A stretch of 64,000 nt of DNA from Candidatus Eremiobacteria bacterium (GTDB lineage Bacteria; Vulcanimicrobiota; Vulcanimicrobiia; Vulcanimicrobiales; Vulcanimicrobiaceae): assembly GCA_963737065.1 (NCBI GenBank), contig CAVTRC010000001.1:224001-288000 (forward strand), given 5' to 3'. Position 1 is the first letter of the stretch, and each line of letters starts with the position of its first letter. The position numbers and the translations under genes are program-made. The notes under the pieces were generated by a model. That model saw only the letters and a program-made list of their open reading frames with translations, searched no databases and had not been told where the DNA came from. Of the stretch, positions 28,313 to 60,698 are shown piece by piece.

Positions 28313-28647
28313 TGATCTGCCCCCCCTTTCCGACCCCAACGCCGGAGCGGCGGAATTCGTGACATTAGGCAACGGCACCCGGGCTCGCTCACACAGCGAG
28401 CGCTTGAGGCGTCTAAGCGGCCAAGCGACGGCGCTCGGGGACTTGCACGAGACTACTATATCTCGCACAAGTAGCCCCGAACCGGCTCGAGGGCGCATTG
28501 GTTCGAGCGGAAGCGTACCGGCAACAATACGGCGGTGCCGTGATTGGGCAGGCGCCTCGACGCTGCAGCGCATATTGTCCATTTTCACCTATCCGAATCG
28601 CAACGAAGAAGTCAGTTGCATCCTTGCCGAAGCTCTTCGAGAACCGA

Positions 28648-29667
28648 ATGAATGTAACGGAACCCATCGTAGACACGCGCCGGCGCGGACTGCGTGATCT
28701 GCGCATCTCCGTGACGGACCGCTGCAATTTCCGCTGCGTGTACTGCATGCCGAAGGAAGTGTTCGGCCCGGACTATCAGTTCATGCCGCAGGCGGAGCTC
28801 CTAACGTTCGAAGAGATCGTTCGCCTCGCCAAGATCTTCCACGCGCATGGAGTGGAAAAGATTCGCCTTACCGGCGGTGAGCCGCTGTTGCGTAAGGGAA
28901 TCGAACGGCTCGTCGAGATGCTTGCAACGGAACTGCCCGGCGTCGTTCTGACGCTTACGACGAACGGCTCGGCACTAAAAGCGAAGGCGAAAGCGCTCAA
29001 AGCCGCTGGCTTGACGCGCATCACCGTGAGCCTCGATTCGCTCGACGATGCGACGTTCAAAGCGATGAACGACGTTAACTTCCCGGTCGCCAAAGTTCTC
29101 GAGGCAATCGATACCGCTGCGGATGCGGGGCTCGCTCCCGTGAAGATCAATATGGTCGTGAAACGCGGCGTCAACGATTCGCATATCGTCGAGATGGCAC
29201 GGTACTTCAAAGGTTCCGGAAACATCGTGCGATTCATCGAATTCATGGACGTCGGCACAACGAACGGGTGGAAAATGGATCATGTCGTTCCGAGCGCCGA
29301 GGTCGTACGGTCGATCGATCGTGTTTTTCCATGCGTTCCCGCGCATCCGAACTACGCCGGTGAGGTCGCGAAGCGGTGGCGCTACACGGATGGTTCCGGC
29401 GAGTTCGGTGTGATTTCGAGCGTCACCGAAGCATTCTGCAGTTCGTGCACGCGCGCGCGTCTTTCGAGCGACGGCATGATGTTTACATGCCTCTTCGGGA
29501 GTAAAGGGCGCGACTTCAAATCGATGCTGCGCGAGGGAAAAACCGACGACGAGATCGCGCGCGCGATTGGCGCGATTTGGCGATCTCGCGACGATCGCTA
29601 CTCAGAAATCCGCACGAATGAGACCGTGAAGGAACGGAAAGTCGAGATGAGCTTCATCGGCGGATAG
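28648..29667 (+). CDS. moaA: GTP 3',8-cyclase MoaA
   Basis: [36 protein letters not shown] and C-terminal MSFIGG. Confidence 0.97.
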
Positions 29668-29686: not shown

Positions 29687-30229
29687 ATGCACGTCGCAAG
29701 CTACTTGATGCATCGAGAGCATGCGCCGCCGGGCTTCTGGCCATGGCGCGATGATGTCAGGTGCATCGAAGGCGTGGAGTTCGAAAGCACGGGTCCGACG
29801 CGCTTCTTCCAGACCGTGGATACGCACCCACGCAGTTGGGGACGATTGAACTGGCGCGTTCAGCTCAATAAACTTGCAGACGATCGCGCTGCACTTCCGC
29901 TCTTTCGCACGTTTTACCCGGGCGTTGAGTGGAAGCTCGCGCCGTCAGCGGACCAGCGGTGGTTTGTGACGGCGTGGTTTCGCTGGGATCGGCCGGCGGG
30001 TGAGCACGTCGAAGGATGTGCCGGCTCGGTTGCGGCCATTGAATCCGGCGTTATCTCATTTCGGATTCCCGCGTTCGATCGCGACAGCGGTGAGACGCTG
30101 CAGCTTCGCTCGCGTGTCGACGCGCGCGACCGGCGAAGCATTGCCGATTCCGTTCAATCGGTTCGGAAAAGCGACGCGAGCACCAAGAGCACGCTCATCA
30201 ACTTGGATGACGTTCTCGACCTTCACTAG
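29687..30229 (+). CDS. Hypothetical protein
   Basis: 180-aa Trp-rich ORF directly after moaA; no family recognised. Confidence 0.5.
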   Translation: MHVASYLMHREHAPPGFWPWRDDVRCIEGVEFESTGPTRFFQTVDTHPRSWGRLNWRVQLNKLADDRAALPLFRTFYPGVEWKLAPSADQRWFVTAWFRWDRPAGEHVEGCAGSVAAIESGVISFRIPAFDRDSGETLQLRSRVDARDRRSIADSVQSVRKSDASTKSTLINLDDVLDLH

Positions 30230-30342: not shown

Positions 30343-31668
30343 GTGCAGATTGTTGTGTCACTCTTGAAAGCCGATTTTGTGGAGTTGCCGGACGAGCGCC
30401 CGCCGCAGCCGAGCGACGGAGCAATTCGCGCGTGGGCCCTCAGTGATGTGCTCGATGCCGCACTGAGCAGCACCGGCGCGGATGTCGCGGAAATATTTCT
30501 TCGCGACGGCGATTCGCACGGCGTCTCTCTTGCGGCGTTCCGCGGCCCGTTTTCCGAAGCATTTCATCAAATCACGCACTTCGAAGAGGGTCAAGGATAT
30601 CCGGGCCTGGTCGTGCTTCACGGCCGGCCGGTCGAAGCAAGCGATGCGTTCGCGGATATTCGTTTTCTTCGATCGCACGTCAAGCACGCCGGCTTCCGTC
30701 ACTTTCTCTGCGTTCCAATTCCCGGGCAAAGACGGGCGATCGGAAGTTTGGACGTCGCGTGGCGGCGCGCGGCAGGACAATCGGCTTCGCGCTGCATCCC
30801 GTTATCCCGCGAAGCGGAGCGGCTCGCATTGTTGCTCGAGCGCGACTCGAACGACGTCCCGCAAAGCGGCGCTGAACCGGGTGCGGTCGATGGGACATTG
30901 ATCTTGCACGTGCTCGGCGGATTTACCGCGCGCTTGGGTTCACTCTGCCTCGGCATGGATCAGTTTGCGCGACGCAGATCGCTGACGCTGCTGAAGATTC
31001 TCGTTGCGAATTATGGGCGCGTGCTCGGGCGAGACGAATTGGTCGATCAAATCTGGCCAACCAAGCCGCCGGAAGACGCGCCGCAGCTGCTCAAATCCGC
31101 CGCGCACTATCTGCGACGCGCGCTAGGCGAAGCGCACGATGAGAAACCGAGCGCGCGATTCATTTTGACGACGGCAAACGGGTACGCGTTCAACACCTCG
31201 TCACCGCACTGGATTGACGCCGTCGAATTCAAGCGGCTCGCCGAAGAAGGGCTACGGTTGGAACGACAAGGCCGATGGCGCGAAGCGTTAGGGTCGCTCG
31301 AGCCGGCCGCGGAACTGTATCGCGGCGCGTATCTCGATGACGAGCCGTACAGCGAATGGGCGATCGCGCAGCGGCGCCGATTCAGTGAATTACATTTCGA
31401 CGTCCTCGCGGCGTCCGCTCGGTTATTTCGCATTGCCGGCGACTTCGAAGCAGCGATTCGGTCTAATCGGCGCATGCTGCAATTCGATCCGTGTTTAGAA
31501 GACGTGCATTGCGATCTCATGGATTTGCTCTTCCGCTCCGGCAAGCGAATTCAAGCGCTACGTCAATTCGAGGCGTGTCGCAGAGCACTCAAGGAAGAGT
31601 TCGATTCCTCACCGCTTTTGGAAACGGAAACGCTTTACCGCAGCATTTTGAACGGATGCCTTCATTAG
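30343..31668 (+). CDS. GAF + winged-helix + BTAD (SARP/AfsR-like) transcriptional regulator
   Basis: GAF (GQGYPGLV, FLCVPI, IGSLDV), wHTH (RDELVDQIWP..NGYAF) and BTAD (IDAVEF, LYRGAYL, DPCLEDVH, ETETLY). Confidence 0.88.
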   Translation: MQIVVSLLKADFVELPDERPPQPSDGAIRAWALSDVLDAALSSTGADVAEIFLRDGDSHGVSLAAFRGPFSEAFHQITHFEEGQGYPGLVVLHGRPVEASDAFADIRFLRSHVKHAGFRHFLCVPIPGQRRAIGSLDVAWRRAAGQSASRCIPLSREAERLALLLERDSNDVPQSGAEPGAVDGTLILHVLGGFTARLGSLCLGMDQFARRRSLTLLKILVANYGRVLGRDELVDQIWPTKPPEDAPQLLKSAAHYLRRALGEAHDEKPSARFILTTANGYAFNTSSPHWIDAVEFKRLAEEGLRLERQGRWREALGSLEPAAELYRGAYLDDEPYSEWAIAQRRRFSELHFDVLAASARLFRIAGDFEAAIRSNRRMLQFDPCLEDVHCDLMDLLFRSGKRIQALRQFEACRRALKEEFDSSPLLETETLYRSILNGCLH

Positions 31669-31771: not shown

Positions 31772-32617
31772 ATGATTCGTGTTATCGCGGCCGCATCGTT
31801 CGCCCTAATTTTCGGATATGCAACCGCATGCGCGCTTGCGGACGAAGGCGCCACCGTCTTTGCTTCCAAGTGCGCCGCGTGTCATACGATTGGTAAAGGC
31901 AAGCTCGTCGGTCCGGATTTAAAAGGGATAACCACCACGCAAAGCCCCGAGTGGCTTGCTAAGTGGGTTTCCTCGCCGAGCGCAATGGTGCATTCCGGCG
32001 ATCCGACGGCGATGAACATCGTCAAGCAATATCCGATGCAGATGCCGGACCTTGGTCTTTCGCAAAGCGACGTCACCGCCGTGCTTGCATATATCGCGCA
32101 GCAATCAGGCGGCGGCGCGTCGTCAGCGGCCGCCGCTCCCGCGGTCAAATTTCCCGCGGGCGATGCCGAAGCCGGGCGCGAGCTCTTCGTCGGCAACAAA
32201 CGGCTTCAGAACGGCGGGCCGCCATGCATGTCGTGCCACAGTATTTCCGGCATCGGCGCGCTCGGCGGGGGAACGCTCGGACCCGACCTCACCAACGTGT
32301 TTACGACGCTTGGCGGTGAAGCGGGGACGGAGTCGTTTCTGAGCAGCGTGCCGACGCCGACGATGAGCGCCGTTTGGTCGAAGCACCCGCTGACGCCGCA
32401 AGAGATCGCGAACCTCGTGGCTTTCATTAAAGAAGGCGAAGTTGCGCAGCGCTCTCCCGGAATTTTGGCGCAGCTGATCGTGCTTGCGATCATTGCTGCA
32501 CTGATATTGGTCATCATTTTTGCAACGTATTGGCGGCGGCGGCTGCGCGGGGTTCGCATCCCGCTCGTCGCGCGCGCGAATGCGACGTTCCTCAGTAAAG
32601 AACCTCGGAGGCTGTAA
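31772..32617 (+). CDS. Membrane-anchored diheme cytochrome c (NarC-like / NXR-associated)
   Basis: Signal peptide, CAACH and CMSCH motifs, C-terminal TM helix; 3 nt before the alpha subunit. Confidence 0.9.
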   Translation: MIRVIAAASFALIFGYATACALADEGATVFASKCAACHTIGKGKLVGPDLKGITTTQSPEWLAKWVSSPSAMVHSGDPTAMNIVKQYPMQMPDLGLSQSDVTAVLAYIAQQSGGGASSAAAAPAVKFPAGDAEAGRELFVGNKRLQNGGPPCMSCHSISGIGALGGGTLGPDLTNVFTTLGGEAGTESFLSSVPTPTMSAVWSKHPLTPQEIANLVAFIKEGEVAQRSPGILAQLIVLAIIAALILVIIFATYWRRRLRGVRIPLVARANATFLSKEPRRL

Positions 32618-32620
32618 CCG

Positions 32621-35600
32621 ATGGGTTGGATTCAGGACTTAGTCGACCCGAAGTCTCGCCGCTGGGAAGAGTTTTACCGTAATCGCTGGATGCACGATCA
32701 GATCGTGCGCAGCACGCACGGCGTAAATTGTACCGGTGGATGCTCGTGGGCCGTCTACGTGAAGGACGGCATCATCACGTGGGAGATGCAGCAGACGGAT
32801 TATCCGCTGCTCGAAAAGGGGCTCCCACCGTACGAACCGCGCGGCTGCCAGCGCGGCATATCGGCTTCGTGGTACGTTTACAGCCCAATTCGCGTCAAGT
32901 ATCCGTACATTCGCGGAGCGCTGCTGGATTTTTGGCGCAAAGCGAAGACGCAATACTCGAACCCCATCGAAGCCTGGGGATCGATCGTCGAAGACGACCA
33001 AAAGCGCAAACGGTATCAACGCGCACGCGGCAAAGGCGGCTACCGGCGGACGAACTGGGACGAGGTCCTCGAGCTGATCACCGCCTCATGTCTCTACACG
33101 GCGAAGAAATGGGGGCCGGACCGCATCTTCGGGTTCGCGCCGATTCCCGCGTTTTCGTTTGCGTCGTATGCCAGCGGTGCGCGCTTCCTGCAGCTCATCG
33201 GCGGCGTCAACATGAGCTTCTACGATTGGTACGCCGATCTCCCGAACGCGTTTCCGGAAGTCTGGGGCGACCAAACGGATGTCTGTGAAAGCGCCGACTG
33301 GTACAACTCGAGTTACATCGTCTCGATCGCGGCGAATTTAAACATGACGCGTACACCCGACGTGCACTTCATTTCCGAAGCGCGCACGAACGGGAGCAAA
33401 TTTGTCGTCATCTCGCCGGATTTCAATCAGGTCGCGAAGTACGCGGACAACTGGATTCCAATCAAAGCCGGCCAAGACACGGCGTTCTGGATGGCGGTCA
33501 ATCACGTCATCTTGAAAGAGTATCACCACGATCGCACGGTGCCGTACTTCGATCGCTACGTGAGGCAATACACTGATGCACCGTTCCTCGTCGAGGTGAC
33601 GGGAGACGCGACGTCGGGATACAAGGCCGGTCAGTTGCTGCGCGCGAATCGCGTCGCCCGCTACGCCGACGTAGAGAACGGCGAGTGGAAGATGCTGATG
33701 ATGGACGGGCAAACTAATGCGCCGAAAATGCCGATGGGCACGGTTGGCTTCCGCTGGCAGAAACAAAAAGGACAGTGGAACCTCAAACTCGAGGACGGCA
33801 TGGACGGCAGTCCGATCGATCCGGTCCTGACCTTCATCGATAAAAACGACGGCGTGGTCGACGTCGACTATTATGAGTTCGCATCGAAGACGATGAGCCG
33901 CCGCGGCGTTCCGGTCCGTTACATTGAAACAGCGAAGGGCCGCGTCCCCGTTGCGACGGTATTCGATCTTTACATGGCGCAGTATGGCGTGAACCGCGGG
34001 CTTTCGGGCGAGTACGCGGCAAGCTACGACGAGGTCGGACCGTACACGCCGGCGTGGCAAGAGCAATACACCGGAATCGGTCGCGAGACCGTGATTCGCT
34101 TCGCGCGCGAGTTCGCGACGAACGCTGAGCTCACGAACGGCCGCTCGATGTGCATCACCGGCGCGAGCCTCAATCACTGGTACAACAACGGCCTTGCCTA
34201 CCGGGGGCCGATCAATGCACTGCTCTTCACCGGGTGTTGCGGCGTGAACGGTGGCGGCATGAACCACTACGTCGGCCAAGAGAAGCTTGCGCCGGCCGCC
34301 CCGTGGGCCACGATTGCGTTTGCGCTCGACTGGCAGAAGCCGCCGAGGCGCGCGCAGTCGCCCGTCTGGCATTACGTGATGAGCGATCAGTGGCACTATG
34401 AGGGCGACTTCACCGAGTATGCGGCCGTTCCACCGGACGCGAAATACGCCAAAGGCCACTGCATGGACATCGAGCGCGATGCCGTTATGCGCGGATGGAT
34501 GCCGCACTATCCGCAACTCGAAGACAATCCGCTCGACACCGTACGCGAGGCGCAGGCGGCCGGCGCAACCGACGACGCCGCAATCATTCAGAACGTCGTC
34601 GATCGATTGAAGTCGGGCAAGCTGAAGTGGGCGATCGAAGATCCGGACGCGGAGCAAAATTGGCCGCGCGTTTGGTTCATATGGCGCGGCAACGCAATCA
34701 TGGCGAGCGCCAAAGGTCATGAGTTCTTTTTGCGTCACTACCTCGGCACGCACGATAATGCGATCGCCGAAGACCGCGCAAAAGGCCACGTGAAAAAGGT
34801 GACGTTCCGCGAGCCGGCGCCGCGGGGCAAGTTCGATTTAGTCGTCGACATCAACTTCCGGATGGATACGTCGGCGTTGTACTCGGATATCGTTCTGCCG
34901 ACGGCCATGTGGTACGAGAAGAACGATCTCAATACGACGGATCTTCACTCGTTCGTCCACGTGCTCGGCGCCGCCGTGCCGCCCGTTTGGGAATCGAAGA
35001 CCGATTGGGACATCTTCAAAGCGCTTGCGCGCAAGTTTAGCGAGCTCGCACCGCTTGCGTTCCCTGAACCGGTCAAGGACGTCGTGATGCAGCCGCTCAT
35101 GCACGACACGCCGGACGAGATCACACAGGCCGAAGTGCTCGATTGGACGGCCGGCGACTGCGAGCCGATCCCGGGCAAGACGATGCCGCATATGCGCGTC
35201 GTGACCCGCGACTACAGCCAGGTCTACAACAAATATATTACGCTCGGGCCGAATGTTCCAAAAGACGGGATGTCGTTCAACGGCGTACACGTACCGGCTG
35301 AGAAGTTCTACAATCAGCTTCTTCAGAATCCGGTTAGCCTTACGCCCGATTCGCGCCATATGCGTTGCGTTCAGTGGAACGGGCAAAAATATCCGAGCCT
35401 CGAGGACGCGCTCGACGTCTGCAATACGATCCTGCATCTTGCGCCGGAAACGAACGGCGACGTCTCATACGAGACGTTCGCTCACGAGGAAGAAGAAACG
35501 GGCGTCCCGCTCAAGGATCTCGCTGAAGGAGTCCGCGGGGTGCGCATGAACTTCGGCGATATCACGAGGCAGATCAAACGCTTGCTGATCAGTCCATGTT

Positions 35601-36268
35601 GGACCGGAATGATCAATGACGGTCGAGCGTATTCCGCGTGGTGCCTAAACGTCGAACGCTTGGTGCCATGGCGGACGGTTACCGGACGTTCGCAGCTCTA
35701 CATGGATCATCCGTGGTACATCGACTTCGGCGAGCACTTCGCAACGTACAAGCCGAAGCTCGATCCGCACAAGACCGGCGATATCGTGTTGAGTCCGGTT
35801 GATGACAAGTGCCTCATCCTGAACTACATCACCCCTCACGGAAAGTGGCACATCCATTCGACGTACTATGACAACCTCCGCATGCTGACGCTTTCGCGTG
35901 GGATGGAGCCGTGCTGGATCAACGACAAAGATGCCGCACGCATAGGAATCGTCGACAATCAATGGGTCGAGGTCTATAACGACAACGGCGTCATGGTGAC
36001 GCGCGCTGCGGTCAGCGCACGCGTGCAACCGGGAACGTGCATGATCTACCACGCACCCGACCGCACGATCTCCATGCCGAAATCACAGGTTCGCGGCGGA
36101 CGGCGCGCCGGCGGACACAACAGTCTCACGCGCACGCGGATGAATCCGCTTCAAATTGCCGGCGGGTACGGCCAATTCACGTATGGTTTCAATTACTGGG
36201 GGCCGATCGGGATTATGACCCGCGACACGTACGCCGTCGTGCGTGCGCTCAGTAAATTAGAATGGTAA
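32621..36268 (+). CDS. nxrA/narG: Nitrite oxidoreductase / respiratory nitrate reductase alpha subunit (Nitrobacter-like NxrA/NarG, cytoplasm-facing)
   Basis: STHGVNCTGGC FS0 motif, SFYDWYADLP Mo-ligand Asp, HYVGQEK, TPHGKWHIHS; no Tat signal. Confidence 0.95.
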   Translation: MGWIQDLVDPKSRRWEEFYRNRWMHDQIVRSTHGVNCTGGCSWAVYVKDGIITWEMQQTDYPLLEKGLPPYEPRGCQRGISASWYVYSPIRVKYPYIRGALLDFWRKAKTQYSNPIEAWGSIVEDDQKRKRYQRARGKGGYRRTNWDEVLELITASCLYTAKKWGPDRIFGFAPIPAFSFASYASGARFLQLIGGVNMSFYDWYADLPNAFPEVWGDQTDVCESADWYNSSYIVSIAANLNMTRTPDVHFISEARTNGSKFVVISPDFNQVAKYADNWIPIKAGQDTAFWMAVNHVILKEYHHDRTVPYFDRYVRQYTDAPFLVEVTGDATSGYKAGQLLRANRVARYADVENGEWKMLMMDGQTNAPKMPMGTVGFRWQKQKGQWNLKLEDGMDGSPIDPVLTFIDKNDGVVDVDYYEFASKTMSRRGVPVRYIETAKGRVPVATVFDLYMAQYGVNRGLSGEYAASYDEVGPYTPAWQEQYTGIGRETVIRFAREFATNAELTNGRSMCITGASLNHWYNNGLAYRGPINALLFTGCCGVNGGGMNHYVGQEKLAPAAPWATIAFALDWQKPPRRAQSPVWHYVMSDQWHYEGDFTEYAAVPPDAKYAKGHCMDIERDAVMRGWMPHYPQLEDNPLDTVREAQAAGATDDAAIIQNVVDRLKSGKLKWAIEDPDAEQNWPRVWFIWRGNAIMASAKGHEFFLRHYLGTHDNAIAEDRAKGHVKKVTFREPAPRGKFDLVVDINFRMDTSALYSDIVLPTAMWYEKNDLNTTDLHSFVHVLGAAVPPVWESKTDWDIFKALARKFSELAPLAFPEPVKDVVMQPLMHDTPDEITQAEVLDWTAGDCEPIPGKTMPHMRVVTRDYSQVYNKYITLGPNVPKDGMSFNGVHVPAEKFYNQLLQNPVSLTPDSRHMRCVQWNGQKYPSLEDALDVCNTILHLAPETNGDVSYETFAHEEEETGVPLKDLAEGVRGVRMNFGDITRQIKRLLISPCWTGMINDGRAYSAWCLNVERLVPWRTVTGRSQLYMDHPWYIDFGEHFATYKPKLDPHKTGDIVLSPVDDKCLILNYITPHGKWHIHSTYYDNLRMLTLSRGMEPCWINDKDAARIGIVDNQWVEVYNDNGVMVTRAAVSARVQPGTCMIYHAPDRTISMPKSQVRGGRRAGGHNSLTRTRMNPLQIAGGYGQFTYGFNYWGPIGIMTRDTYAVVRALSKLEW

Positions 36269-36297
36269 ACGGCGCTAAATTAGAATGGTAAACGGCG
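36253..36297 (+). repeat. Tandem 22-bp duplication spanning the alpha-subunit stop codon
   Basis: TAAATTAGAATGGTAAACGGCG at 36253-36274 and 36276-36297. Confidence 0.95.
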
Positions 36298-36326
36298 ATC
36301 GCAGGATCCACGGGAGTTCGTAAATT

Positions 36327-37832
36327 ATGGACATACGCGCACAAGTATCAATGGTTTTCCACCTCGACAAGTGTATCGGTTGCCACACGTGCAGCATCGC
36401 GTGCAAGAACATATGGACCGACCGTAAAGGCACCGAGTACATGTGGTGGAACAACGTCGAAACGAAGCCCGGTACGGGCTATCCCACCACATGGGAAGAT
36501 CAAAGCAAATATCGCGGCGGCTGGGTCAAAGACGGCGACCGTCTGCGGCTCAAATTGCAAGGCCGCGCCGAAGGATTGGGAAACATCTTCTTCAATCCGA
36601 ATCTGCCGACGATCGACGACTATTACGAGCCGTGGACGTATCAATACGACGAGCTCTTCAATGCGCCCGAAGGCGACGATCAGCCGACTGCCCGTCCCAT
36701 ATCGCTGATCACCGGCAAACCGATGGATATCGAGGCGGGGCCAAACTGGGACGATGATCTCGGCGGCTCGCCCGTCTATGCCAGCAACGACGTCAATCTC
36801 GACAAGCTGAGCGACAAGGAACGCGAGCAGCTCAACGAAGTCGAACGGCTCGTTTTCTTCTACCTTCCCCGCATCTGCAATCACTGCCTGAATCCGGCGT
36901 GCGTCGGCGCATGCCCGTCGGGAGCGATCTACAAGCGCGGCGAAGACGGCATCGTCCTGATCAGTCAGGAAAAATGCCGGGCGTGGCGCATGTGCATCTC
37001 CGGCTGTCCGTATAAGAAGACCTACTACAACTGGTCGACGGGAAAGTCCGAGAAGTGCATTCTGTGCTATCCGCGTCTCGAGACGGGACAAGCACCGGCA
37101 TGCTTCCATTCATGCGTCGGGCGCATCCGGTATCTCGGCTTGCTGCTTTACGATGCGGATCGCATTACCGAGGCTGCGCTCCACGACGACGCGGATCTCG
37201 TGTACGCGCAACGCGATATCATTCAGGATCCGTTCGATCCGGTCGTGATCGCCGCGGCGAAAGCAAACGGCGTCACGGATCTTCAGCTCGCTGCCGCGCA
37301 GAACTCCCCGGTCTACAAGTTCGTGAAGCGGTGGGGCCTCGCGCTGCCGCTGCATCCCGAATTCCGCACGATGCCGATGTTGTTCTACGTACCGCCGATG
37401 CTGCCGGTCCTCGGACGAATGAACGAAAGCGGCATCTACGATAACTCAGGCATCGAAGGCCTCGGACAAATGATCAGCTCGCTCGAACAAGCGCGCGTTC
37501 CGATCAAGTACATGGCCAGCCTATTCACCGCAGGAAACACGCAGATCGTGGAAGAGGTTTACCGCAAACAAATCGCCGTCCGCTTATACAAGCGCTCGCA
37601 GCGGGTGAAAGACATCAGCGCCGCTGAAGCGCAAGAAGCGATGCGTATCGGACGAACGACGCCGGAAGAGTGCGAGGCGATCTTCAATCTCACGTCGCTT
37701 CCCACGTTTGAAGAACGGTTCGTGATTCCCGCGATGGCTCGCGAAGAAGCGGTGGAACAGTTCCTCGATCCGTACACCCACAAACCGGCGGCCGGCTTCG
37801 GCTTCCGCGAGACGCCCGCACGCAGATGGTAG
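36327..37832 (+). CDS. nxrB/narH: Beta (Fe-S) subunit NxrB/NarH
   Basis: LDKCIGCHTCSIACK, RICNHCLNPACVGACP, CRAWRMCISGCP and CILCYPR. Confidence 0.95.
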   Translation: MDIRAQVSMVFHLDKCIGCHTCSIACKNIWTDRKGTEYMWWNNVETKPGTGYPTTWEDQSKYRGGWVKDGDRLRLKLQGRAEGLGNIFFNPNLPTIDDYYEPWTYQYDELFNAPEGDDQPTARPISLITGKPMDIEAGPNWDDDLGGSPVYASNDVNLDKLSDKEREQLNEVERLVFFYLPRICNHCLNPACVGACPSGAIYKRGEDGIVLISQEKCRAWRMCISGCPYKKTYYNWSTGKSEKCILCYPRLETGQAPACFHSCVGRIRYLGLLLYDADRITEAALHDDADLVYAQRDIIQDPFDPVVIAAAKANGVTDLQLAAAQNSPVYKFVKRWGLALPLHPEFRTMPMLFYVPPMLPVLGRMNESGIYDNSGIEGLGQMISSLEQARVPIKYMASLFTAGNTQIVEEVYRKQIAVRLYKRSQRVKDISAAEAQEAMRIGRTTPEECEAIFNLTSLPTFEERFVIPAMAREEAVEQFLDPYTHKPAAGFGFRETPARRW

Positions 37833-37836
37833 GCGC

Positions 37837-38469
37837 ATGAGCATGACATCCCAAACGCGGATACTCGAGTTGTTCGCCGATCTTCTCGACTATCCGCGTC
37901 CGGATTTGGACATCCCGGCGGCAGCGCGTGAATGTCGCGCGCTCGTTGTTGAGGAAAGCCCCGACGCGGCCGCGATGTTGGACGAATTCATTGGGTTCGC
38001 AGAGCGGACGCCGCGAGACACGATTGAAGAAATCTTCTCTGCGACGTTCGACTTGAATGCATCGTGTCATCCGTACGTCGGATACCACATGTTCGGCGAA
38101 TCGTATCCACGCAGCTTGTTCATGTTGGAACTCAAGGAGCGCTTTCGGGGTCAGAATTTCGACCCCGGAATCGAACTGCCGGACCACATCGGAGTGCTGC
38201 TGCGATTCGCATCGGTATGCAACGACGATGCGTTGCGTGACGAAGTCATTCGGGACGCGGTACTTCCAACACTCGGGCCCATGACGCTTGCGCCGGAAAG
38301 CGCACCCGTACTCGACGAAGGCGAAGGTGCGGCGCCCGAAGTGTTCGACGTCGGAACCGATTACCGTCGCATCTTGCAGGCCCTGCAATTCGTATTACAA
38401 GCACGCTACGGTGCGCCGGCGAAGCTGAAGCCGGTGCCCGTTCCGGAGTCTGAGCGTCTGGTTTCCTAA
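37837..38469 (+). CDS. narJ: Molybdoenzyme maturation chaperone NarJ
   Basis: LLDYP, TFDL..PYVGYH and ELPDHIGVLLRF. Confidence 0.92.
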   Translation: MSMTSQTRILELFADLLDYPRPDLDIPAAARECRALVVEESPDAAAMLDEFIGFAERTPRDTIEEIFSATFDLNASCHPYVGYHMFGESYPRSLFMLELKERFRGQNFDPGIELPDHIGVLLRFASVCNDDALRDEVIRDAVLPTLGPMTLAPESAPVLDEGEGAAPEVFDVGTDYRRILQALQFVLQARYGAPAKLKPVPVPESERLVS

Positions 38470-38496
38470 CGTTAGCAGAACGAGCGGAGGAACTTC

Positions 38497-39234
38497 ATGT
38501 CTGACACGTTTCTCTGGGACGTATGGCCCTACGTCGCCTTCGCAATCTTTATCTTCGGCGGGCTGTACCGCTACCTGAGAGATCGCTTCTCCTTCTCCAG
38601 CCAGTCGTCGCAATTCTTGGAGAATCGTTTCCTCTTTTGGGGATCGACGATGTGGCACTACGCGATCATTCTCATCTTGATTCCGCACACGCTCGGGTTT
38701 TTGTTCCCGCAAGCATGGGCGGCGCTCATCGAGAATCAGACGCGGCTTTACATCCTCGAGATCACCGGCCTCGCACTAGCCGTCATGGCGATCATCGGCC
38801 TCTTCACGTTGATCTTCCGGCGTTTATCGAGTCCGCGCATACAATTCGTCACCACGGGAATGGACTGGGTCCTGCTCGCATCCCTCGCGCTTCAAGTCGT
38901 CATGGGATTTTGGATCGCGTTCTTCTATCGCTGGGGCTCCGAGTGGTATCTGCATACATCCGTGCCGTGGCTGCGTTCGCTTGCCGCGTTCAACCCGCAA
39001 ATTCAATACGTTACCGCTATGCCGGTGCCGGTGAAGATTCACATGTTCAACGCGTTCGTGTTGCTTGCGCTCTTCCCGTTCACTCGCCTCGCGCACGTCG
39101 TAACGGCTCCGCTGTTCTATCTGATCAGACCGTATCAAGTCGTAATCTGGTATCGCCAGCGTAACCTTCCGTATGGTGCACCCGCCGGAAGCGAGCGCGT
39201 CGGCCCCGATGTACCGTATCTGCGACACGGCTGA
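38497..39234 (+). CDS. narI: Gamma subunit, membrane cytochrome b (NarI/NxrC)
   Basis: SSQSSQFLE, four candidate heme-ligand His (WHY, IPH, KIH, LAH) and LFPFTRLAH. Confidence 0.95.
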   Translation: MSDTFLWDVWPYVAFAIFIFGGLYRYLRDRFSFSSQSSQFLENRFLFWGSTMWHYAIILILIPHTLGFLFPQAWAALIENQTRLYILEITGLALAVMAIIGLFTLIFRRLSSPRIQFVTTGMDWVLLASLALQVVMGFWIAFFYRWGSEWYLHTSVPWLRSLAAFNPQIQYVTAMPVPVKIHMFNAFVLLALFPFTRLAHVVTAPLFYLIRPYQVVIWYRQRNLPYGAPAGSERVGPDVPYLRHG

Positions 39235-39256: not shown

Positions 39257-39814
39257 ATGGCACGTGATGGCCGCGTCATGCCTGCGGCGGACGATCGATT
39301 GGAGCGGTTGTGTCAGATAAGCTCGACCGTCGCTGTTCCCGCGTTAATGGCCCTCTTGACGGCGACGCAGCACGAATTTCTTCAGCCTGCGACTGCGTTT
39401 TTGGTGCTGCCTCCGTTCGCCGTCGTCATTTATCTGCTTTTCCGAGACCCGTACGGCAAATGGGCGAATCTCCGATCGATCGTCGTTTTGCCGTGCCTGG
39501 GCGCAGTGATCGGTCAGTTGAGCTTCCACTTCTTCGGGCTCACGCCGCTCGGGATAGCGATCGATACACTTTGCGTAGTGGGTGCTCAAACGCTTTTGCG
39601 AGGACGCATGCCGCCGGCATTAGCGCTCTCGGTTCTTGCGATGCTGCTGCGCGTTCAGTCATTCACGTACACGCTCGGCGTAGCCGAAGCGTCGGTCTCG
39701 ATCGGAATCGTGTTCTTCGTGTGGCGGCGGATCTTGGTCGCGCCGCTTCTTCACACGTCCTCATATAGGATACATCCCCCTCAACGCGACGTCTTGCCGG
39801 AGGTTCGCCAATGA
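39257..39814 (+). CDS. HPP family membrane protein (possible nitrite transporter)
   Basis: LPPFAV..LLFRDP..ANLRSIV and MPPALA (variant of the HPP motif). Confidence 0.7.
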   Translation: MARDGRVMPAADDRLERLCQISSTVAVPALMALLTATQHEFLQPATAFLVLPPFAVVIYLLFRDPYGKWANLRSIVVLPCLGAVIGQLSFHFFGLTPLGIAIDTLCVVGAQTLLRGRMPPALALSVLAMLLRVQSFTYTLGVAEASVSIGIVFFVWRRILVAPLLHTSSYRIHPPQRDVLPEVRQ

Positions 39815-40755
39815 GCTCGAGTACAGACACAAACGCGTCTCTGTTAGCGGCACCATCAATATCGGCGCTAGCGGATTCAGGAAAAGACGCAGGCACGTAT
39901 GACGGAATTGCTGCGTTAGATTTCGTTAAGCCGCCGCAGTTATTGCGAACGATCATCGAAACGGGCGCGTCGAAAGGGGATTTGCCGATCATCAAAATCC
40001 TCGTGCGCGGCATGTTCGGCGGTGCGTTTCTCGCGTACGGTACCGCGATGGCGTTTTTCGGGATTGCGCAGGGGCTGCCGCCGATTGTGGCCGACGCGCT
40101 CTTCCCGCTGGGATTCATCGTCATCAACCTCTTACAGGTCGATCTCGCGACCGGCTATTTCGCCTACGTGCCGGTCGCGTACATGAACGGACGCATTACG
40201 TTCGCAAAGATGGCGCGCGCAATCTTCTGGGTGTACGTCGCCAATCTGATCGGCAGTCTGATCGTGGTGGCCTTGCTGTGGCTCGCGCTCACGATGTCCG
40301 GACAGGCGCCCGATACAACCGGAATTTCAGCGGTTCTCGTCAAGGTGGGAACGTCAAAAACGCTGCACTACGCGCAGTTCGGCATGGCGGGCGTATTCAC
40401 GGCATTCATCAAAGGGATCTTATGCAACTGGTTCGTGACGCTCGGCGTTGTGCTTCCCTTCACGACGCGATCGGTGATCGGTAAAGCGATCGCGACGTTC
40501 GTCCCAATTTACATGTTCTTCGGCATGGGCTGGGAACACTTAGTCGTCAATATGTTCATCATTCCGTCGGCGATGGCATATGGCGCGCATATCACGCTCG
40601 CCGATTGGTGGATCGGAAATGAACTGCCGGTAACGATCGGCAACTTCGTCGGAGGCTTCCTTTTCACCGGAGCGGCGATCGGCTTCATCTACGGCGTACG
40701 TGATAAATCGGCAACGAGCAATCCGCGCGGTGTAACTCCTGCTGCCGTTCGATGA
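39811..40755 (+). CDS. Formate/nitrite transporter (FNT, NirC/FocA family)
   Basis: LFPLGF, DLATG, GILCNWFV, GWEHLVVNMF and PVTIGNFVGG. Confidence 0.93.
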   Translation: MSSSTDTNASLLAAPSISALADSGKDAGTYDGIAALDFVKPPQLLRTIIETGASKGDLPIIKILVRGMFGGAFLAYGTAMAFFGIAQGLPPIVADALFPLGFIVINLLQVDLATGYFAYVPVAYMNGRITFAKMARAIFWVYVANLIGSLIVVALLWLALTMSGQAPDTTGISAVLVKVGTSKTLHYAQFGMAGVFTAFIKGILCNWFVTLGVVLPFTTRSVIGKAIATFVPIYMFFGMGWEHLVVNMFIIPSAMAYGAHITLADWWIGNELPVTIGNFVGGFLFTGAAIGFIYGVRDKSATSNPRGVTPAAVR

Positions 40756-41315
40756 GCGAGAGCGCCGGCGAAGGCGTTCGTGATCCATCGCTCGGTGACG
40801 AAGAAGCGTATCGGCTGTGCACGGAGTTGGTTTCGCTCGGCGAATTGAGGGCTGCAGTCGACTACATGCGACGCAAGGTGAACCGCGCGCGCAAGTCGAT
40901 GCCGGCAGATTCCCGGATGCATCTCCGCCTGCTCTCACAGTACGCCGCCATATTAGAGCTCACGGAAACGTACGGTGAGGCAGAGTTTCTTCGCGCGAAG
41001 GCCGTTGAAATCGTAGAAACCGGAACGGTCTCCGCCGAAGACGCGCTTGACGCGTATCTCACGTATGGGCTTCTTCTCACGCGGAACCGCAACTACAACG
41101 CCGCGCTGGCGCCGCTGAAGGAAGCCCTACGCCGAGCCGAAACGGTCGAAGCGATTGCACCCGTCGAGCAGCAAATTGCGCTCGCAAAGGCCTGGAGAGC
41201 GTTGCAACAGGCATACGAAGGGCTCGGCGAGCTCTCGCAAGCGTCGGACGCCTTGGACGCACTCGACAACATCAAACGGCTCATCCGTTATCTAGTCTTC
41301 TCAATGTCGAGGTAA
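40752..41315 (+). CDS. TPR-like helical protein
   Basis: Helical repeats; ATGA overlap with the FNT gene. Confidence 0.65.
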   Translation: MSESAGEGVRDPSLGDEEAYRLCTELVSLGELRAAVDYMRRKVNRARKSMPADSRMHLRLLSQYAAILELTETYGEAEFLRAKAVEIVETGTVSAEDALDAYLTYGLLLTRNRNYNAALAPLKEALRRAETVEAIAPVEQQIALAKAWRALQQAYEGLGELSQASDALDALDNIKRLIRYLVFSMSR

Positions 41316-41323
41316 CACCCAGC

Positions 41324-41653
41324 ATGTATATCGTCAACGGCAAGCCGGCGTGTCTGTTGATCACCGAAAATCTCTCCCGCGCGCATGCCGACGGCGAACG
41401 GCATTTCTATCCGGCGCTCGTCAAGGCGTTCGAACCAGGATATGAAGCAACCGATTGGGACTACGGTGCCGACTATCCCGAGGCGCAGCAACGCGTGGAA
41501 GCCTTCAACGCCGAACACGGCGTGAATAAGGACGCGGCGCTACTGATCGTCACCTCGTCGATGTTTCCTTCTGCACCGATTTCCACAGCGGATATCTACC
41601 GCGCGAACCTCGAGGAGTATGCAGACGATTCGAGTCAAAAGACGCCGGGATAA
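41324..41653 (+). CDS. Hypothetical protein
   Basis: Acidic 109-aa ORF with GAGG RBS. Confidence 0.55.
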   Translation: MYIVNGKPACLLITENLSRAHADGERHFYPALVKAFEPGYEATDWDYGADYPEAQQRVEAFNAEHGVNKDAALLIVTSSMFPSAPISTADIYRANLEEYADDSSQKTPG

Positions 41654-47832: not shown

Positions 47833-48477
47833 TCACCATAAGTAGAACAGGAAGAACAGTGCAACCCAAACGACGTCGACGAAGTGCCAGTACAGCGTCC
47901 CGCACGTGAGGCCGAGATATTTCGACCCGGTGTATGTCCCGCGGTTTGCTTGCATACCGAGAACCGCGAGGAAGATGACGCCGACGAATACATGGAATCC
48001 GTGCATGCCCGTCAACGTGAAGAACGACGCACCCATCGTGCTGCCCGGCCACGTTACGCCATCGTGTAAAACGCCCGTCCATTCATGCGCCTGACCGAGA
48101 AGAAACAAGATGCCGAGGATGATCGTCGCGATCAGCCAGAGGTTGAATTTGGCTTTGTGTAAGTACTTCCAGTTCTCCAGCGCGAAGTGCATCGTCACGC
48201 CTGATCCAAACAGAATCACCGAGTTGACCGCGGCAAAGCTCGTGTCGAACCACGGCAGCTGGTGGCCTCCGACGAACGGAGGCCATGTCGGCGCCGACGT
48301 ACGGAGGTAGACGTACGCGAAGATGAACGACGAGAACAGGATGCAGTCGCTCAGCAGAACGAGCACAAACCCGAGAAGCCGGATGTCGCGAGTTTCCCAA
48401 TAAATGGGATCGACGTCATTGTACCGGGCCGCGACGGCTGCGTGTCTGCCGAGATGCGGTGCAGTGATAGCTGCCAA
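47833..48477 (-). CDS. coxC: Cytochrome c oxidase subunit III
   Basis: FFTLTGMHGFHV and LYWHFVDVVW. Confidence 0.95.
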   Translation of the reverse strand: MAAITAPHLGRHAAVAARYNDVDPIYWETRDIRLLGFVLVLLSDCILFSSFIFAYVYLRTSAPTWPPFVGGHQLPWFDTSFAAVNSVILFGSGVTMHFALENWKYLHKAKFNLWLIATIILGILFLLGQAHEWTGVLHDGVTWPGSTMGASFFTLTGMHGFHVFVGVIFLAVLGMQANRGTYTGSKYLGLTCGTLYWHFVDVVWVALFFLFYLW

Positions 48478-48480
48478 CGT

Positions 48481-50223
48481 CTATCCTCCCACGAGAGCCG
48501 GCTGCGGCATGACGAGCTTGCCGTACTCGGGATACGGCTCGATCGCGTTGTCGGTGTCTTTATACGGCAATGGCTTTTCGAAGTCGTACGGTCCGGCCGT
48601 GACCTCGGGCAGAGATTTGAAGTTGTAGTATGGCGGCGGAGAGCTGGTCGTCCACTCCAACGTGCGGGCGCCCCACGGATTGATGCCTGCGAGCCGTCCA
48701 TGCTTAAGGCTCCAAAGCGCGTTGAAGAGCAACAAGCCGACCGATGCGACCATCAAGAACGAGAACGCGGTCTCGAATTGGTTCCAGAACTGCGCATCCG
48801 GATTTCCGGCTGCGAAGGCGGCGTAGGAAGCATAGCGCCGCGGCATACCTTCAATGCCCAGCCAGTGCATCGGCAAAAACGTTCCGTTGAGTCCGATAAA
48901 GAACAGCCAAAATCCCAGTTGTCCCAAACGTTCGTTCATGAGTCTGCCGGTCGCTTTCGGATACCAATACGGAACGGCCGCGAGGAAGCCCATGACCGCG
49001 CCGCCCGCAACGACGTAGTGGAAATGCCCTACGACGAAGTAGCTGCCGTGCAAATGGAGATCGACCGGCACCGAGGCTAAGAAGATGCCGGTGATACCAC
49101 CGAACGTAAACGTGAGGAGAAATCCGACCGCGTATAGCATTGACGCCGTGAACCGGATCGAACCGCCCCATAGCGTCGCAACCCAGGAGAACATCTTGAT
49201 TCCGGTCGGGATCCCGATCGCGTACGTAAGGATCATGAACGGAATCTGCAACCATGGAGCCAGACCGCTGGGGAACATGTGATGCGCCCACACCGTGAAC
49301 GCAAGCAACGCGATCGCCATCGACGAGAACGCGATCATCTTGTATCCGAAGATTGGTTTGCGCGAGAACGTCGGCAGCACTTCGGAAACCACACCGAACG
49401 CCGGAATGATGAAGATGTAGACGGCGGGATGCGAGTAGAACCAGAACATGTGCTCGAAAAGCACCGGACTGCCGCCGCGAGCCGGATCGTACCACGGAAT
49501 GTTCCAGACGTGCTCGAGGAAGAGCGCGCCCGTTGCGACCGACAGCGCGACGGTCGCAAACATGTTCATCAATGCCGTTGCGAACGTTGCCCATACGAAG
49601 AGCGGCATACGCGTCCACGTCATACCGGGTGCGCGCATCTTTATGATCGTTACCATGAAGTTCATTCCGGTAAGCGTCGAACTTATGCCGACGACGAAGA
49701 TCGCGGCGCACCACAATGCGCCTGCCGTTCCGTCCGCGAGCGAGATCGGCGGATACTCGGTCCATCCGGCGTGCGGGCCGCCGAAGAGCATCGAACTGAA
49801 CAAGATGACGGCCGCAATAGGTAAGATCCAGAAGCTGATCATGTTCAGCCACGGAAACGCGACGTCGCGTGCGCCGATTTGAAGCGGCATCACGAAGTTC
49901 CCAATCGCTCCGGTGACGAGCGGAATCAAGACGATCCACACCATCGCCGTACCGTGCATGGTGAACATCTCGTTGTAGGTATTGTGATCCATGATCGCGC
50001 CGTTCGGATCGGTCAACTGCAAGCGCATGAGTTCGGCGAACGAACCGGCGATCAACATGATCAGCATGCCGGTGATGAAGTACTGGATCCCGATCACCTT
50101 ATGATCCAGCGAAAAGACGTACTTTCGGACGAAGCCTTGCGGTGCCGGGTGAATGTGCCCGATCGCGACGTGTTCTTCGTGTCCGGTATCGTGAGCGGTT
50201 AAGTGCTTTCCAGTGGTGTCCAT
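48481..50223 (-). CDS. coxA: Cytochrome c oxidase subunit I (type A2)
   Basis: DHKVIG, TMHG, WFYSHPAVY (YS motif of A2 oxidases), VWAHHMF and HFHYV. Confidence 0.97.
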   Translation of the reverse strand: MDTTGKHLTAHDTGHEEHVAIGHIHPAPQGFVRKYVFSLDHKVIGIQYFITGMLIMLIAGSFAELMRLQLTDPNGAIMDHNTYNEMFTMHGTAMVWIVLIPLVTGAIGNFVMPLQIGARDVAFPWLNMISFWILPIAAVILFSSMLFGGPHAGWTEYPPISLADGTAGALWCAAIFVVGISSTLTGMNFMVTIIKMRAPGMTWTRMPLFVWATFATALMNMFATVALSVATGALFLEHVWNIPWYDPARGGSPVLFEHMFWFYSHPAVYIFIIPAFGVVSEVLPTFSRKPIFGYKMIAFSSMAIALLAFTVWAHHMFPSGLAPWLQIPFMILTYAIGIPTGIKMFSWVATLWGGSIRFTASMLYAVGFLLTFTFGGITGIFLASVPVDLHLHGSYFVVGHFHYVVAGGAVMGFLAAVPYWYPKATGRLMNERLGQLGFWLFFIGLNGTFLPMHWLGIEGMPRRYASYAAFAAGNPDAQFWNQFETAFSFLMVASVGLLLFNALWSLKHGRLAGINPWGARTLEWTTSSPPPYYNFKSLPEVTAGPYDFEKPLPYKDTDNAIEPYPEYGKLVMPQPALVGG

Positions 50224-50230
50224 ATCGCCT

Positions 50231-57939: not shown

Positions 57940-58110
57940 GTGCTGGGCTATTGTGTGATCTGTCAAACCAAGTGCGAGCTGCGCGACCTCAAGCAAATTC
58001 AACGCAGTGGCTTACCGGCCGTTGAGGGCACCTGTACGGCCTGCGGCACGAAAACATTCCTTCTCGGCGCCGAAGTACCGACGCCGGAGGATGCGCCTAG
58101 CCCAGAATGA
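57940..58110 (+). CDS. DUF5679-like zinc-ribbon small protein
   Basis: YCVICQTK..GTCTACGTKTF; AGGAG RBS. Confidence 0.7.
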   Translation: MLGYCVICQTKCELRDLKQIQRSGLPAVEGTCTACGTKTFLLGAEVPTPEDAPSPE

Positions 58111-59504: not shown

Positions 59505-60698
59505 GTGCGACAAACCGGTCCGCGTGCTCGGTCGACGGCGCTGCTGCTTTCGACGCTCGCTTTTGCGGTCTGCTTTTACGGATGGACGCTTTACGGTCCG
59601 CTCGCACCCGCGTTACAAACGACGCTGCGCCTTAATGACGTTCAGGTAGGGTGGCTCGTCGCGATCCCCGTTGTGCTCGGATCGCTGATGCGTATACCGC
59701 TGGGTTTTCTCAGCCAGCGATTCGGCGGCCGCATCGTATTCGTTGCGCTGATGGCGTTTGCACTCGTGCCGCTTCTGGCGATCATCGCATGGCACGAGTC
59801 GTATACCGCGTTGCTCGCGTTCGGCTTATTGCTCGGCTTCGCCGGTGCTTCGTTCGCGGTCGGCGTTCCATTCGTCAATGATTGGTATCCGCCGCAGCAG
59901 CGCGGATTCGCGCTCGGGATCTATGGCGCCGGGACCGGCGGAACCGTCATCGCGGGTTTGACCGCTCCACGGCTAGCCGCGGCGTACGGCATATCGGCTC
60001 CCTTCGTGCTCGCCGCGGTGCTCGTCGGGGCGATGCTCGTCATCTTCACGCTCTTTGCGCGCAATGCACCAAACGTCGAGCCGTCAACGGGCAGCTTCGC
60101 CTCGACTTTCGACGTCTTTCGCAAGAGTTTTCGCGCGTGGACGCTCGCCCTCGTCTACTTCGTGACCTTCGGCGGCTTTGTTGCGATGTTTCTTTACCTT
60201 CCGCAGATTCTCGTCGGCGTCTACGCGTTGTCGAAAACGGACGCGGGAGCGCGTGCTGCGGGGTTTGCACTCGTCTCGGTGCTCGCGCGTCCCATCGGCG
60301 GCGCGCTCGCGGACCGATTCGGCGCGGAACGTGTTCTCGTCTACGCGCTGGCATGGGCGGTTGCGGTGGCGGCTCTGCTCGGTGCAACGTACACGTGGAT
60401 GGCCTTCTTCACCGCATGTTGCTTGACGCTCGCAGCAGCGTTCGGCGCAGGCAGCGGCGCGGTGTTCAAGATCGTCGGCAGCGAATTTCCGAAGAGCGTG
60501 GGAGCCGTCACCGGAGTCGTCGGCGCGACGGGCGGCCTCGGCGGTTTCTTTCCGCCGATCGTCATGGGAATCGTCAAGGCCTACACCGGTTCGTATGCTT
60601 TGGGTTTCGCGCTGATGGGCGTGATGTGCGCCGTATGTCTCGCGCTGCTGCTCCCGAGACGCGAGCACGACATCAGCACCGGAAAACCGACGCTATGA
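59505..60698 (+). CDS. narK: NarK/NasA-family nitrate/nitrite MFS transporter
   Basis: GSLMRIPLG, GFAGASF, YFVTFGGFVA, ARPIGGALADRFG and GGLGGFFPP. Confidence 0.93.
   Translation: MRQTGPRARSTALLLSTLAFAVCFYGWTLYGPLAPALQTTLRLNDVQVGWLVAIPVVLGSLMRIPLGFLSQRFGGRIVFVALMAFALVPLLAIIAWHESYTALLAFGLLLGFAGASFAVGVPFVNDWYPPQQRGFALGIYGAGTGGTVIAGLTAPRLAAAYGISAPFVLAAVLVGAMLVIFTLFARNAPNVEPSTGSFASTFDVFRKSFRAWTLALVYFVTFGGFVAMFLYLPQILVGVYALSKTDAGARAAGFALVSVLARPIGGALADRFGAERVLVYALAWAVAVAALLGATYTWMAFFTACCLTLAAAFGAGSGAVFKIVGSEFPKSVGAVTGVVGATGGLGGFFPPIVMGIVKAYTGSYALGFALMGVMCAVCLALLLPRREHDISTGKPTL

Follow-up and report, generated by a model that had tools for sequence, protein, structure and literature searches.

The 64,000-nucleotide (nt) stretch of DNA analyzed here, referred to as the window (positions 224,001 to 288,000 of contig CAVTRC010000001.1, from the Candidatus Eremiobacteria assembly GCA_963737065.1), contains an operon for a molybdenum enzyme of the nitrate reductase/nitrite oxidoreductase type. 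Between positions 31772 and 39234, five co-oriented genes on the + strand encode, in order, a cytochrome c, a catalytic alpha subunit, an iron-sulfur beta subunit, a chaperone and a gamma subunit. The gap between the cytochrome c and alpha genes is 3 nt, and that between alpha and beta is 58 nt and holds no gene. Four more genes follow gamma, with gaps of at most 22 nt or overlaps of 4 nt, and reach position 41653; the operon probably extends past 39234 to this point. All nine genes are open. A first-pass annotation of this DNA had described a Nitrobacter/Nitrolancea-type nitrite oxidoreductase (NXR) operon in an unexpected host and had proposed a new nitrite oxidizer. The gene order and the motifs that it quoted are borne out by the translations of the open reading frames (ORFs): alpha contains GGMNHYVGQEKLAP and an internal PDSRHMRCVQW segment and ends KLEW, and the N-terminus of beta is MDIRAQVSMVFHLDKCIGCHTCSIACKNIWTDRKGTEY.

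Comparison with the curated NCBIfam equivalogs revealed that three of the subunits score above their cut-offs (narG, 1442 versus 1084 bits; narH, 643 versus 524; narI, 138 versus 106). The chaperone scores above the Pfam Nitrate_red_del cut-off (28.2 versus 22.2) and under that of NCBIfam narJ (44.6 versus 59.35), and it lies between beta and gamma, as in Escherichia coli and Thermus. Taking the FS0, molybdenum (Mo) and heme ligand positions to be those of the E. coli structures, we found that alpha H33, C37, C41 and C76 (FS0) and D206 (the Mo-ligand Asp) align with the ligands of E. coli NarG; the same residues are kept, from E. coli through to the window, at these ligands and at the checked pocket positions. 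Histidines of gamma align with E. coli NarI H56, H66, H187 and H205, and the position of NarI Lys86 is occupied by Arg, as in Thermus. The cytochrome carries CxxCH motifs at residues 34 and 152, a signal-like hydrophobic N-terminus and a C-terminal hydrophobic anchor. A sequence scan of alpha revealed no hydrophobic stretch, export signal or Tat (twin-arginine translocation)-like leader. The operon is an intact one for a membrane-bound, inward-facing nitrate/nitrite Mo enzyme with an extra cytochrome c subunit. As a separate observation, the gammas of the Eremiobacterota loci share a conserved C-terminal tail in their last ~25 residues (..GPDVPYLR.G), which is missing from the aligned Thermus, E. 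coli and crown-group NarI.

The first-pass annotation had also held that alpha is cytoplasm facing and non-canonical, and the comparison with homologues agrees. Alpha is 46 to 47% identical to NarG of E. coli, Ralstonia and Bacillus, versus 59 to 60% for Thermus NarG, 71 to 74% for sequences from Chloroflexota, Burkholderiales and Methanoperedens (71% for the cytoplasmic-type Methanoperedens alpha) and 86% for the nearest Eremiobacterota sequence. For beta, the identity is 51% with E. coli NarH and 61% with Thermus NarH. A reading of the alpha N-terminus, the upstream cytochrome c, the lack of a Tat signal and the start of beta as pointers to nitrite oxidation is not supported: these features are found across the whole clade, Thermus and Methanoperedens included. 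The alpha N-terminus is near-unchanged in Chloroflexota, Methanoperedens and Heimdall-type archaea and slightly altered in Thermus, and at the beta N-terminus even E. coli NarH is similar. The cytochrome c gene is indeed present before alpha but is not specific: of the 66 related loci, which come from many phyla and include anaerobes, 50 have a homologue of NarC, the Thermus cytochrome, upstream of alpha, and in a Methanoperedens locus (L019) a cytochrome c gene directly precedes alpha. The 16 loci without NarC comprise nine archaeal ones, five with too little or no upstream sequence or a partial alpha, and two whose upstream sequence gave no match. In the nine archaeal loci (L028, L029, L035, L037 and L040-L044, from Heimdall-type and unnamed archaeal metagenome-assembled genomes [MAGs]), alpha is 60 to 63% identical to that of the window and a NarC homologue was not found.

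The clade that carries this operon includes Methanoperedens, Thermodesulfobacteriota, Hippea, Omnitrophota and Anaerolineae, whose lifestyles, to our knowledge, bar aerobic nitrite oxidation. An excerpt of PMC9942424 interprets narGHI of Anaerolineae in anammox reactors as nitrate reductases. The Methanoperedens locus was considered as a functional anchor and rejected, as PMC10732223, in the portion consulted, assigns the strain BLZ1 nitrate reductase to the periplasmic clade. According to passages of PMC7694296, narCGHJIKT of Thermus codes for a true respiratory nitrate reductase and narCGHJI gives anaerobic growth on nitrate; Nitrobacter hamburgensis has "a very similar gene cluster," which acts as a nitrite oxidoreductase. 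A proven nitrate reductase thus has just the gene order that the first-pass annotation had taken as Nitrobacter-like. Since all of the nitrite-oxidizer "signatures" are common to the Thermus enzyme, an ordinary nitrate-respiration module is the most likely identity of the operon.

A tree of 53 alphas, all of full length, was built by a short IQ-TREE search under LG+G4, with SH-aLRT as its only support measure and the three canonical NarG sequences as root; it leaves out loci with incomplete or N-containing alphas and contains no named nitrite-oxidizer NxrA. The branching order was Thermus, a Neobacillus MAG, Hippea with two Heimdall-type archaeal groups, Methanoperedens and a 36-row crown of many phyla. 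Thermus and the window clade were separated from E. coli, Ralstonia and Bacillus with an SH-aLRT of 100, at a place near the root where long branches meet, as the program warned. The twelve Eremiobacterota-type rows group together in a single clade with a support of 100 and a stem of 0.22; one row is a contig labeled Limnocylindria. That contig (L012, Candidatus Limnocylindria, Chloroflexota) carries the full Eremiobacterota-type locus, with the regulator, the 180-amino-acid (aa) gene and the HPP and FNT genes described below, and is probably mis-binned or the product of a recent transfer. Named nitrite oxidizers were absent among the 120 best matches each of the window alpha and the Methanoperedens alpha, among the 66 related genome loci and among the plasmid matches.

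The host had been guessed to be a diderm, possibly of the Eremiobacterota/WPS-2, and several lines of evidence agree. The nearest alpha homologues (80 to 87% identical) and the loci with the same flanks bear labels such as Eremiobacteraeota, WPS-2, Vulcanimicrobiaceae and Ca. Zemynaea. The flgI gene of the window, unrelated to the operon, has its best organism-named match at 95% in Ca. Eremiobacteraeota; five of its nine organism-named matches are to Eremiobacterota lineages, and the other four are labeled Dormibacteraeota, Alphaproteobacteria, Acidoferrales and "bacterium." The host encodes flagellar L- and P-ring proteins and TonB, consistent with a diderm. Its assembly comprises 3.08 Mb in 2 contigs and is 95.3% complete with 0.13% contamination, so the chimeric contig that had been a concern is unlikely. 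The locus is chromosomal, and no signs of mobile elements were seen around it.

As far as the databases go, the description of the host as unexpected did not hold up. NCBI already labels two 81%-identical homologues from Eremiobacterota MAGs "nitrate reductase subunit alpha," and the part of a MAG survey drawn on here lists narG/nxrA, narH/nxrB and narI in an Eremiobacterota bin (PMC9455692). A passage of PMC11437008 credits Ji et al. 2021 (ISME J) with describing nitrogen-reduction capacity in Eremiobacterota. Within the titles and abstract openings of literature naming both the phylum and "nitrite oxidoreductase," nitrite oxidation by Eremiobacterota was not proposed. An even sampling of the phylum, 201 genomes in all, gave narG matches in 10 (9 of the 171 high-quality genomes), two of which score like other Nar types; in the family there were 5 matches in 113 genomes, and in the genus 1 in 2. 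The operon is patchy in the phylum, which fits an accessory respiratory module with lineage-specific trimmings, and it is conserved in 15 related Eremiobacterota-type loci.

The genes of the operon and its surroundings are listed in Table 1. Within the fetched flanks of the 15 Eremiobacterota-type loci, homologues of MoaA were found in 6, of the 180-aa gene in 10 and of the GAF-BTAD regulator in 13, and GAF-BTAD relatives lie near the operon in 8 of 51 other loci. On the downstream side, the FNT gene is present in 9 and the HPP gene in 6 of the ten Eremiobacterota-type loci with enough downstream sequence, and homologues of the 187-aa and 109-aa genes occur in 8 and 5 of the 15, respectively. 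These last two genes gave weak Pfam TPR matches under the cut-off. All NCBIfam FocA and NirC models scored the FNT protein under their cut-offs. The HPP family has a nitrite-transport role, and we read its member here as a putative nitrite channel. Among 10 genome-wide matches to the NarK family, the transporter 20 kb downstream ranks first and is the sole candidate nitrate/nitrite porter found in the genome. In a scan for promoters and terminators, sites were no more frequent than in shuffled sequence.

Table 1. Genes of the operon and of its surroundings in the window
Feature	Position	Strand	Evidence and remarks
MoaA (GTP 3',8-cyclase, molybdenum cofactor synthesis)	28498..29667	+	TIGR02666 370 bits versus cut-off 284; adjoins operon
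Conserved protein, 180 aa, upstream of regulator	29687..30229	+	Without a match in Pfam or NCBIfam
DnrS-like transcription regulator with GAF, winged-helix and BTAD parts	30343..31668	+	Pfam GAF, Trans_reg_C, BTAD
NarC-like diheme cytochrome c, 281 aa	31772..32617	+	Pfam Cytochrom_C, two stretches
Catalytic alpha subunit (NarG/NxrA type, Mo-bisPGD, FS0 cluster), 1215 aa	32621..36268	+	TIGR01580 1442 bits
Iron-sulfur beta subunit (NarH/NxrB type), 501 aa	36327..37832	+	TIGR01660 643 bits
NarJ-type assembly chaperone (delta), 210 aa	37837..38469	+	Pfam Nitrate_red_del 28.2 bits
NarI-type diheme b membrane anchor (gamma), 245 aa	38497..39234	+	Pfam Nitrate_red_gam 225 bits
HPP-family membrane protein	39257..39814	+	Pfam TM_HPP 31.9 bits versus cut-off 27.2; five hydrophobic stretches
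Formate/nitrite-transporter (FNT) family anion channel	39811..40755	+	Pfam Form_Nir_trans 192 bits
Two small genes (187 aa, TPR-like; 109 aa)	40752-41315, 41324-41653	+	4-nt overlap with FNT gene, then 8-nt gap
caa3-type cytochrome c oxidase cluster (subunits I, II-cytochrome c fusion, III)	47833-51346	-	
CtaA (oxidase assembly)	55260-56195		
SCO1 (oxidase assembly)	58097-59128		
NarK-family major facilitator superfamily (MFS) transporter, 20 kb downstream	59505..60698	+	Best NCBIfam TIGR00886 222 bits, under cut-off 312

Three further observations concern these loci. The 180-aa, 187-aa and 109-aa genes, none of which has a family assignment, accompany the operon in Eremiobacterota. One Vulcanimicrobiaceae MAG has a complete locus (L009) and, on another contig, a second alpha (L008) that is 80% identical; no cytochrome c, beta, chaperone or gamma gene was detected within 6 kb on either side of the latter. 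In one Eremiobacterota MAG (L013:9600-11200), the beta gene is broken into several frames.

Of the markers of autotrophy and nitrite oxidation that the first-pass annotation had named, RuBisCO and phosphoribulokinase (PRK) were found in the genome, and nirK and a photosynthetic reaction center were not. The large and small subunits of RuBisCO, CbbX, a LysR regulator (CbbR), fructose-bisphosphate (FBP) aldolase, FBPase and PRK are encoded in one region. PRK (G000:C1:751976-752844; locus L089:1131-1999) lies in three frames owing to two single-base insertions relative to an intact gene in a sister genome of the same genus (G158), both of them outside long homopolymers. When ORFs of at least 200 aa were compared between the host and that genome (G158:C1:300001-700000), 14 of 169 orthologous ORFs looked split over two or three frames, a few of these being paralogue artefacts; the host assembly seems to be indel rich, or the genome rich in pseudogenes. 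PRK was not called a pseudogene, as assembly error may explain its frames. NiFe hydrogenase and CO dehydrogenase were likewise not found in the host genome. The sister genome has a block of ~24 kb (G158:C1 ~629000-653000), including a 598-aa NiFe hydrogenase large subunit, that is missing from the host, and the genes on both sides of the facing host region (G000:C1 ~503000-530000) do match. RuBisCO is present in 5 of the 6 family genomes with the operon, against a base rate of 32 of 151 (30 of 149 once the unpublished genomes G204 and G223 are set aside). We give this co-occurrence little weight because the genomes are related and represent only four genera. The four other relatives with both operon and RuBisCO all have hydrogenase, which explains the RuBisCO in them.

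The host encodes two cytochrome c oxidases. One, at a distance of 9 kb from the operon, has a subunit II fused to a cytochrome c domain; this caa3-type cluster and the CtaA and SCO1 assembly genes lie 9 to 20 kb downstream of the operon. A cytochrome bd oxidase is also present and points to low-oxygen life. Other possible electron donors are indicated by three loci resembling PQQ (pyrroloquinoline quinone) dehydrogenases, and SoxB is absent from the genome. We also noted a molybdopterin-oxidoreductase-like frame of 877 codons with one in-frame TGA (G000:C1:1329962-1331413), which might reflect either a frame error or an enzyme with selenocysteine, for instance formate dehydrogenase. The nar/nxr operon is present as a single copy. 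Nitric oxide (NO) and nitrous oxide (N2O) reductases were not found in the genome, and the sole NIR_SIR-family protein is CysI, beside CysH, an assimilatory nitrite reductase not having been found.

We put at about 60% the probability that the operon encodes a Thermus-type NarCGHI enzyme, with its chaperone NarJ, that respires nitrate to nitrite, is induced at low oxygen and releases its nitrite through the FNT and HPP proteins. The four Nar family matches, the retained ligands, the homology to Thermus, the DnrS-like regulator, the patchy distribution, the bd oxidase and the single copy of the operon all argue for it. In Thermus, the operon is activated in an oxygen-sensitive manner by DnrS, which has an N-terminal GAF domain and is encoded just upstream, and NarC, a periplasmic diheme cytochrome bound to the membrane, is required for the maturation and attachment of NarG (both from passages of PMC7694296). 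Starting from the gene content, homologies, conserved ligands and distribution observed at these loci, we infer the catalytic direction, the oxygen regulation and the transport roles as follows. At low oxygen, the adjacent GAF-BTAD regulator would turn the operon on. Nitrate would enter the cell probably via the NarK-like MFS transporter 20 kb away. The NarI diheme b anchor would oxidize quinol, and the four iron-sulfur clusters of NarH would carry the electrons on to the Mo center of NarG, where nitrate would be reduced to nitrite at a cytoplasm-facing active site. The periplasmic, membrane-anchored diheme NarC is predicted to bind NarI and to be needed for assembly, as in Thermus. Nitrite would leave through the cotranscribed FNT and HPP channels, and as no nitrite, NO or N2O reductase was found, the organism would be a nitrate-to-nitrite respirer.

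Several points weigh against this reading. Nothing in the sequence tells a reductase and an oxidase apart, and the catalytic direction is unreadable from it. The Nitrobacter and Nitrococcus NXR as well as the enzyme of Methylomirabilis belong in or near this type, according to parts of PMC7694296 and PMC6094997. The regulator is DnrS-like by sequence, at only ~30% identity to the Thermus protein. The operon lacks NarK/NarT or NarO MFS genes and has two putative nitrite channels (HPP and FNT) instead, and NarC has no obvious downstream acceptor besides the cytochrome c oxidases. Finally, the host genome gave no true match to nirK, nirS or NrfA, that is, no enzyme to consume the nitrite produced, so that nitrite would be either the end product or the sole substrate of the window enzyme.

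Some of these points lead to an unlikely reading, in which the enzyme is reversible: it would reduce nitrate at low oxygen and, under oxic conditions, oxidize nitrite, with NarI feeding electrons via NarC into the caa3/aa3 oxidases for detoxification or as an energy supplement of a mixotroph. NarC would provide a periplasmic route to the two encoded cytochrome c oxidases, the nearer of which carries its own fused cytochrome c, and the nitrite channels are cotranscribed in a genome in which no other nitrite-consuming enzyme was found. The same electron path is given for the Nitrobacter homologue in an excerpt of PMC7694296, and PMC6094997 terms such enzymes "Nar/Nxr." However, sequence does not reveal how the hemes and clusters are tuned in redox terms, and the similarity of the regulator is to an activator of anaerobic respiration.

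Less probable still is the proposal of the first-pass annotation itself, that the operon encodes a dedicated Nitrobacter/Nitrolancea-type NXR that drives chemolithoautotrophy and that this Eremiobacterota lineage is a new nitrite oxidizer. The set of carbon fixation genes from RuBisCO to PRK is consistent with it, as are the two cytochrome c oxidases and, weakly, given related genomes, the frequency of RuBisCO among operon-bearing members of the family. No reaction center, NiFe hydrogenase or CO dehydrogenase was found in the host, and the hydrogenase block of the sister genome has no counterpart there. On such a view, the host would have lost the hydrogenase island yet kept RuBisCO, and the enzyme would run backwards, with nitrite entering via HPP/FNT and electrons flowing from NarI to NarC to caa3, a scenario that we consider doubtful. 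PRK is in three frames, possibly by assembly error; the four other relatives with RuBisCO and the operon have hydrogenase; and the PQQ-dehydrogenase-like loci and the molybdopterin ORF with its TGA offer alternative donors. The genome has one nar/nxr copy and yielded neither nirK nor an assimilatory nitrite reductase, the regulator is DnrS-like, and every signature feature is shared with Thermus Nar. The remaining alternatives, another main oxyanion substrate (chlorate, perchlorate or selenate) or a module that has lost its function, are very improbable: type II dimethyl sulfoxide (DMSO) reductase relatives match part of alpha (perchlorate reductase PcrA, 429 to 434 bits) and frame breaks are many elsewhere in the assembly, but the narG equivalog is far over its cut-off while DMSO_red_II is under its own (574 versus 985 bits), the nine genes are open with their ligands intact, and the operon is conserved in the related loci.

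If the nitrate-respiration reading is correct, a Thermus-type nitrate reductase occurs in ~5% of sampled Eremiobacterota, along with lineage-specific neighbors, namely, a DnrS-like regulator, HPP and FNT channels and the three genes without family assignment. This would bear on nitrate-to-nitrite turnover in Eremiobacterota soils and peats and would otherwise add little. If the enzyme oxidizes nitrite, the organism would be the first nitrite oxidizer in its phylum, which would matter for nitrification in acidic soils, and NarC-type enzymes could switch direction within a lineage. For gene-centric surveys there is a caution in either case: what is often taken for a "Nitrobacter-type nxr," namely, a cytochrome c gene upstream, the N-terminal motif and the lack of a Tat signal, is characteristic of a very large NarC-type clade, whose members may differ in direction.

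Among known systems, the periplasmic NXR of Nitrospira and Kuenenia (7B04) belongs to the same superfamily, the type II DMSO reductases. Alpha matches Kuenenia NxrA (7B04 chain B) only locally, at 93 bits, versus 1206 to 1208 bits over the full length of the E. coli NarG structures, so the window enzyme is not of the periplasmic type; unlike that type, it has no Tat signal and has a NarI-type anchor. E. coli NarGHJI (1Q16 and 1R27) has the same subunits minus NarC, and all of the compared cofactor ligands are kept. E. coli alpha has ~17 extra N-terminal residues, and alpha and beta are 46% and 51% identical to those of the window; the E. coli operon has no cytochrome c subunit and is adjoined by NarK and NarXL.

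Nitrobacter has Calvin-cycle genes and aa3-type oxidases, and multiple nxr copies are a trait of known nitrite oxidizers. We take Nitrobacter nxrX to lie between the alpha and beta genes. Unlike Nitrobacter, the window has no gene in its alpha-beta gap, and its genome has a single copy of the operon and gave no nirK. Candidates for an nxrX-like gene in the alpha-beta gaps of the related loci were rejected; there was no convincing ORF resembling a peptidyl-prolyl isomerase (PPIase), and the inserts vary between loci. In its Calvin-cycle genes and aa3-type oxidases, the host is like Nitrobacter (PMC11327836). The NXR of Nitrobacter, Nitrococcus and Nitrolancea shares with the window a NarC homologue, a NarI homologue, an inward-facing alpha and a Thermus-like cluster, as described in a section of PMC7694296.

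The comparison with Thermus NarCGHI covers both structure and setting. The Thermus system, known from T. thermophilus as the narCGHJIK/T operon with dnrST, is a nitrate respiration conjugative element, carried in strain JL-18 on a megaplasmid, whereas the host is a mesophilic, soil-type Eremiobacterota with a chromosomal locus. The JL-18 cluster consists of cytochrome c, narG, narH, chaperone, narI and MFS genes; the window operon lacks NarK/NarT and DrpAB and has HPP, FNT and the two small genes in their place. A GAF protein and a Crp-family protein are encoded divergently upstream in JL-18, whereas the window regulator is co-oriented with its operon and is without a DnrT (CRP-type) partner. 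This regulator aligns with the GAF-BTAD protein upstream of Thermus narC in two segments (30 to 31% identity, E = 2e-17); both proteins are GAF plus BTAD in Pfam, and both parts align. Gamma is 38% identical to Thermus NarI, and Thermus alpha, like that of the window, is without an export signal. The window cytochrome is 31% identical to Thermus NarC across both heme domains (E = 6e-23), both being membrane-anchored diheme cytochromes c, and the first five genes of the Thermus cluster are ordered as in the window.

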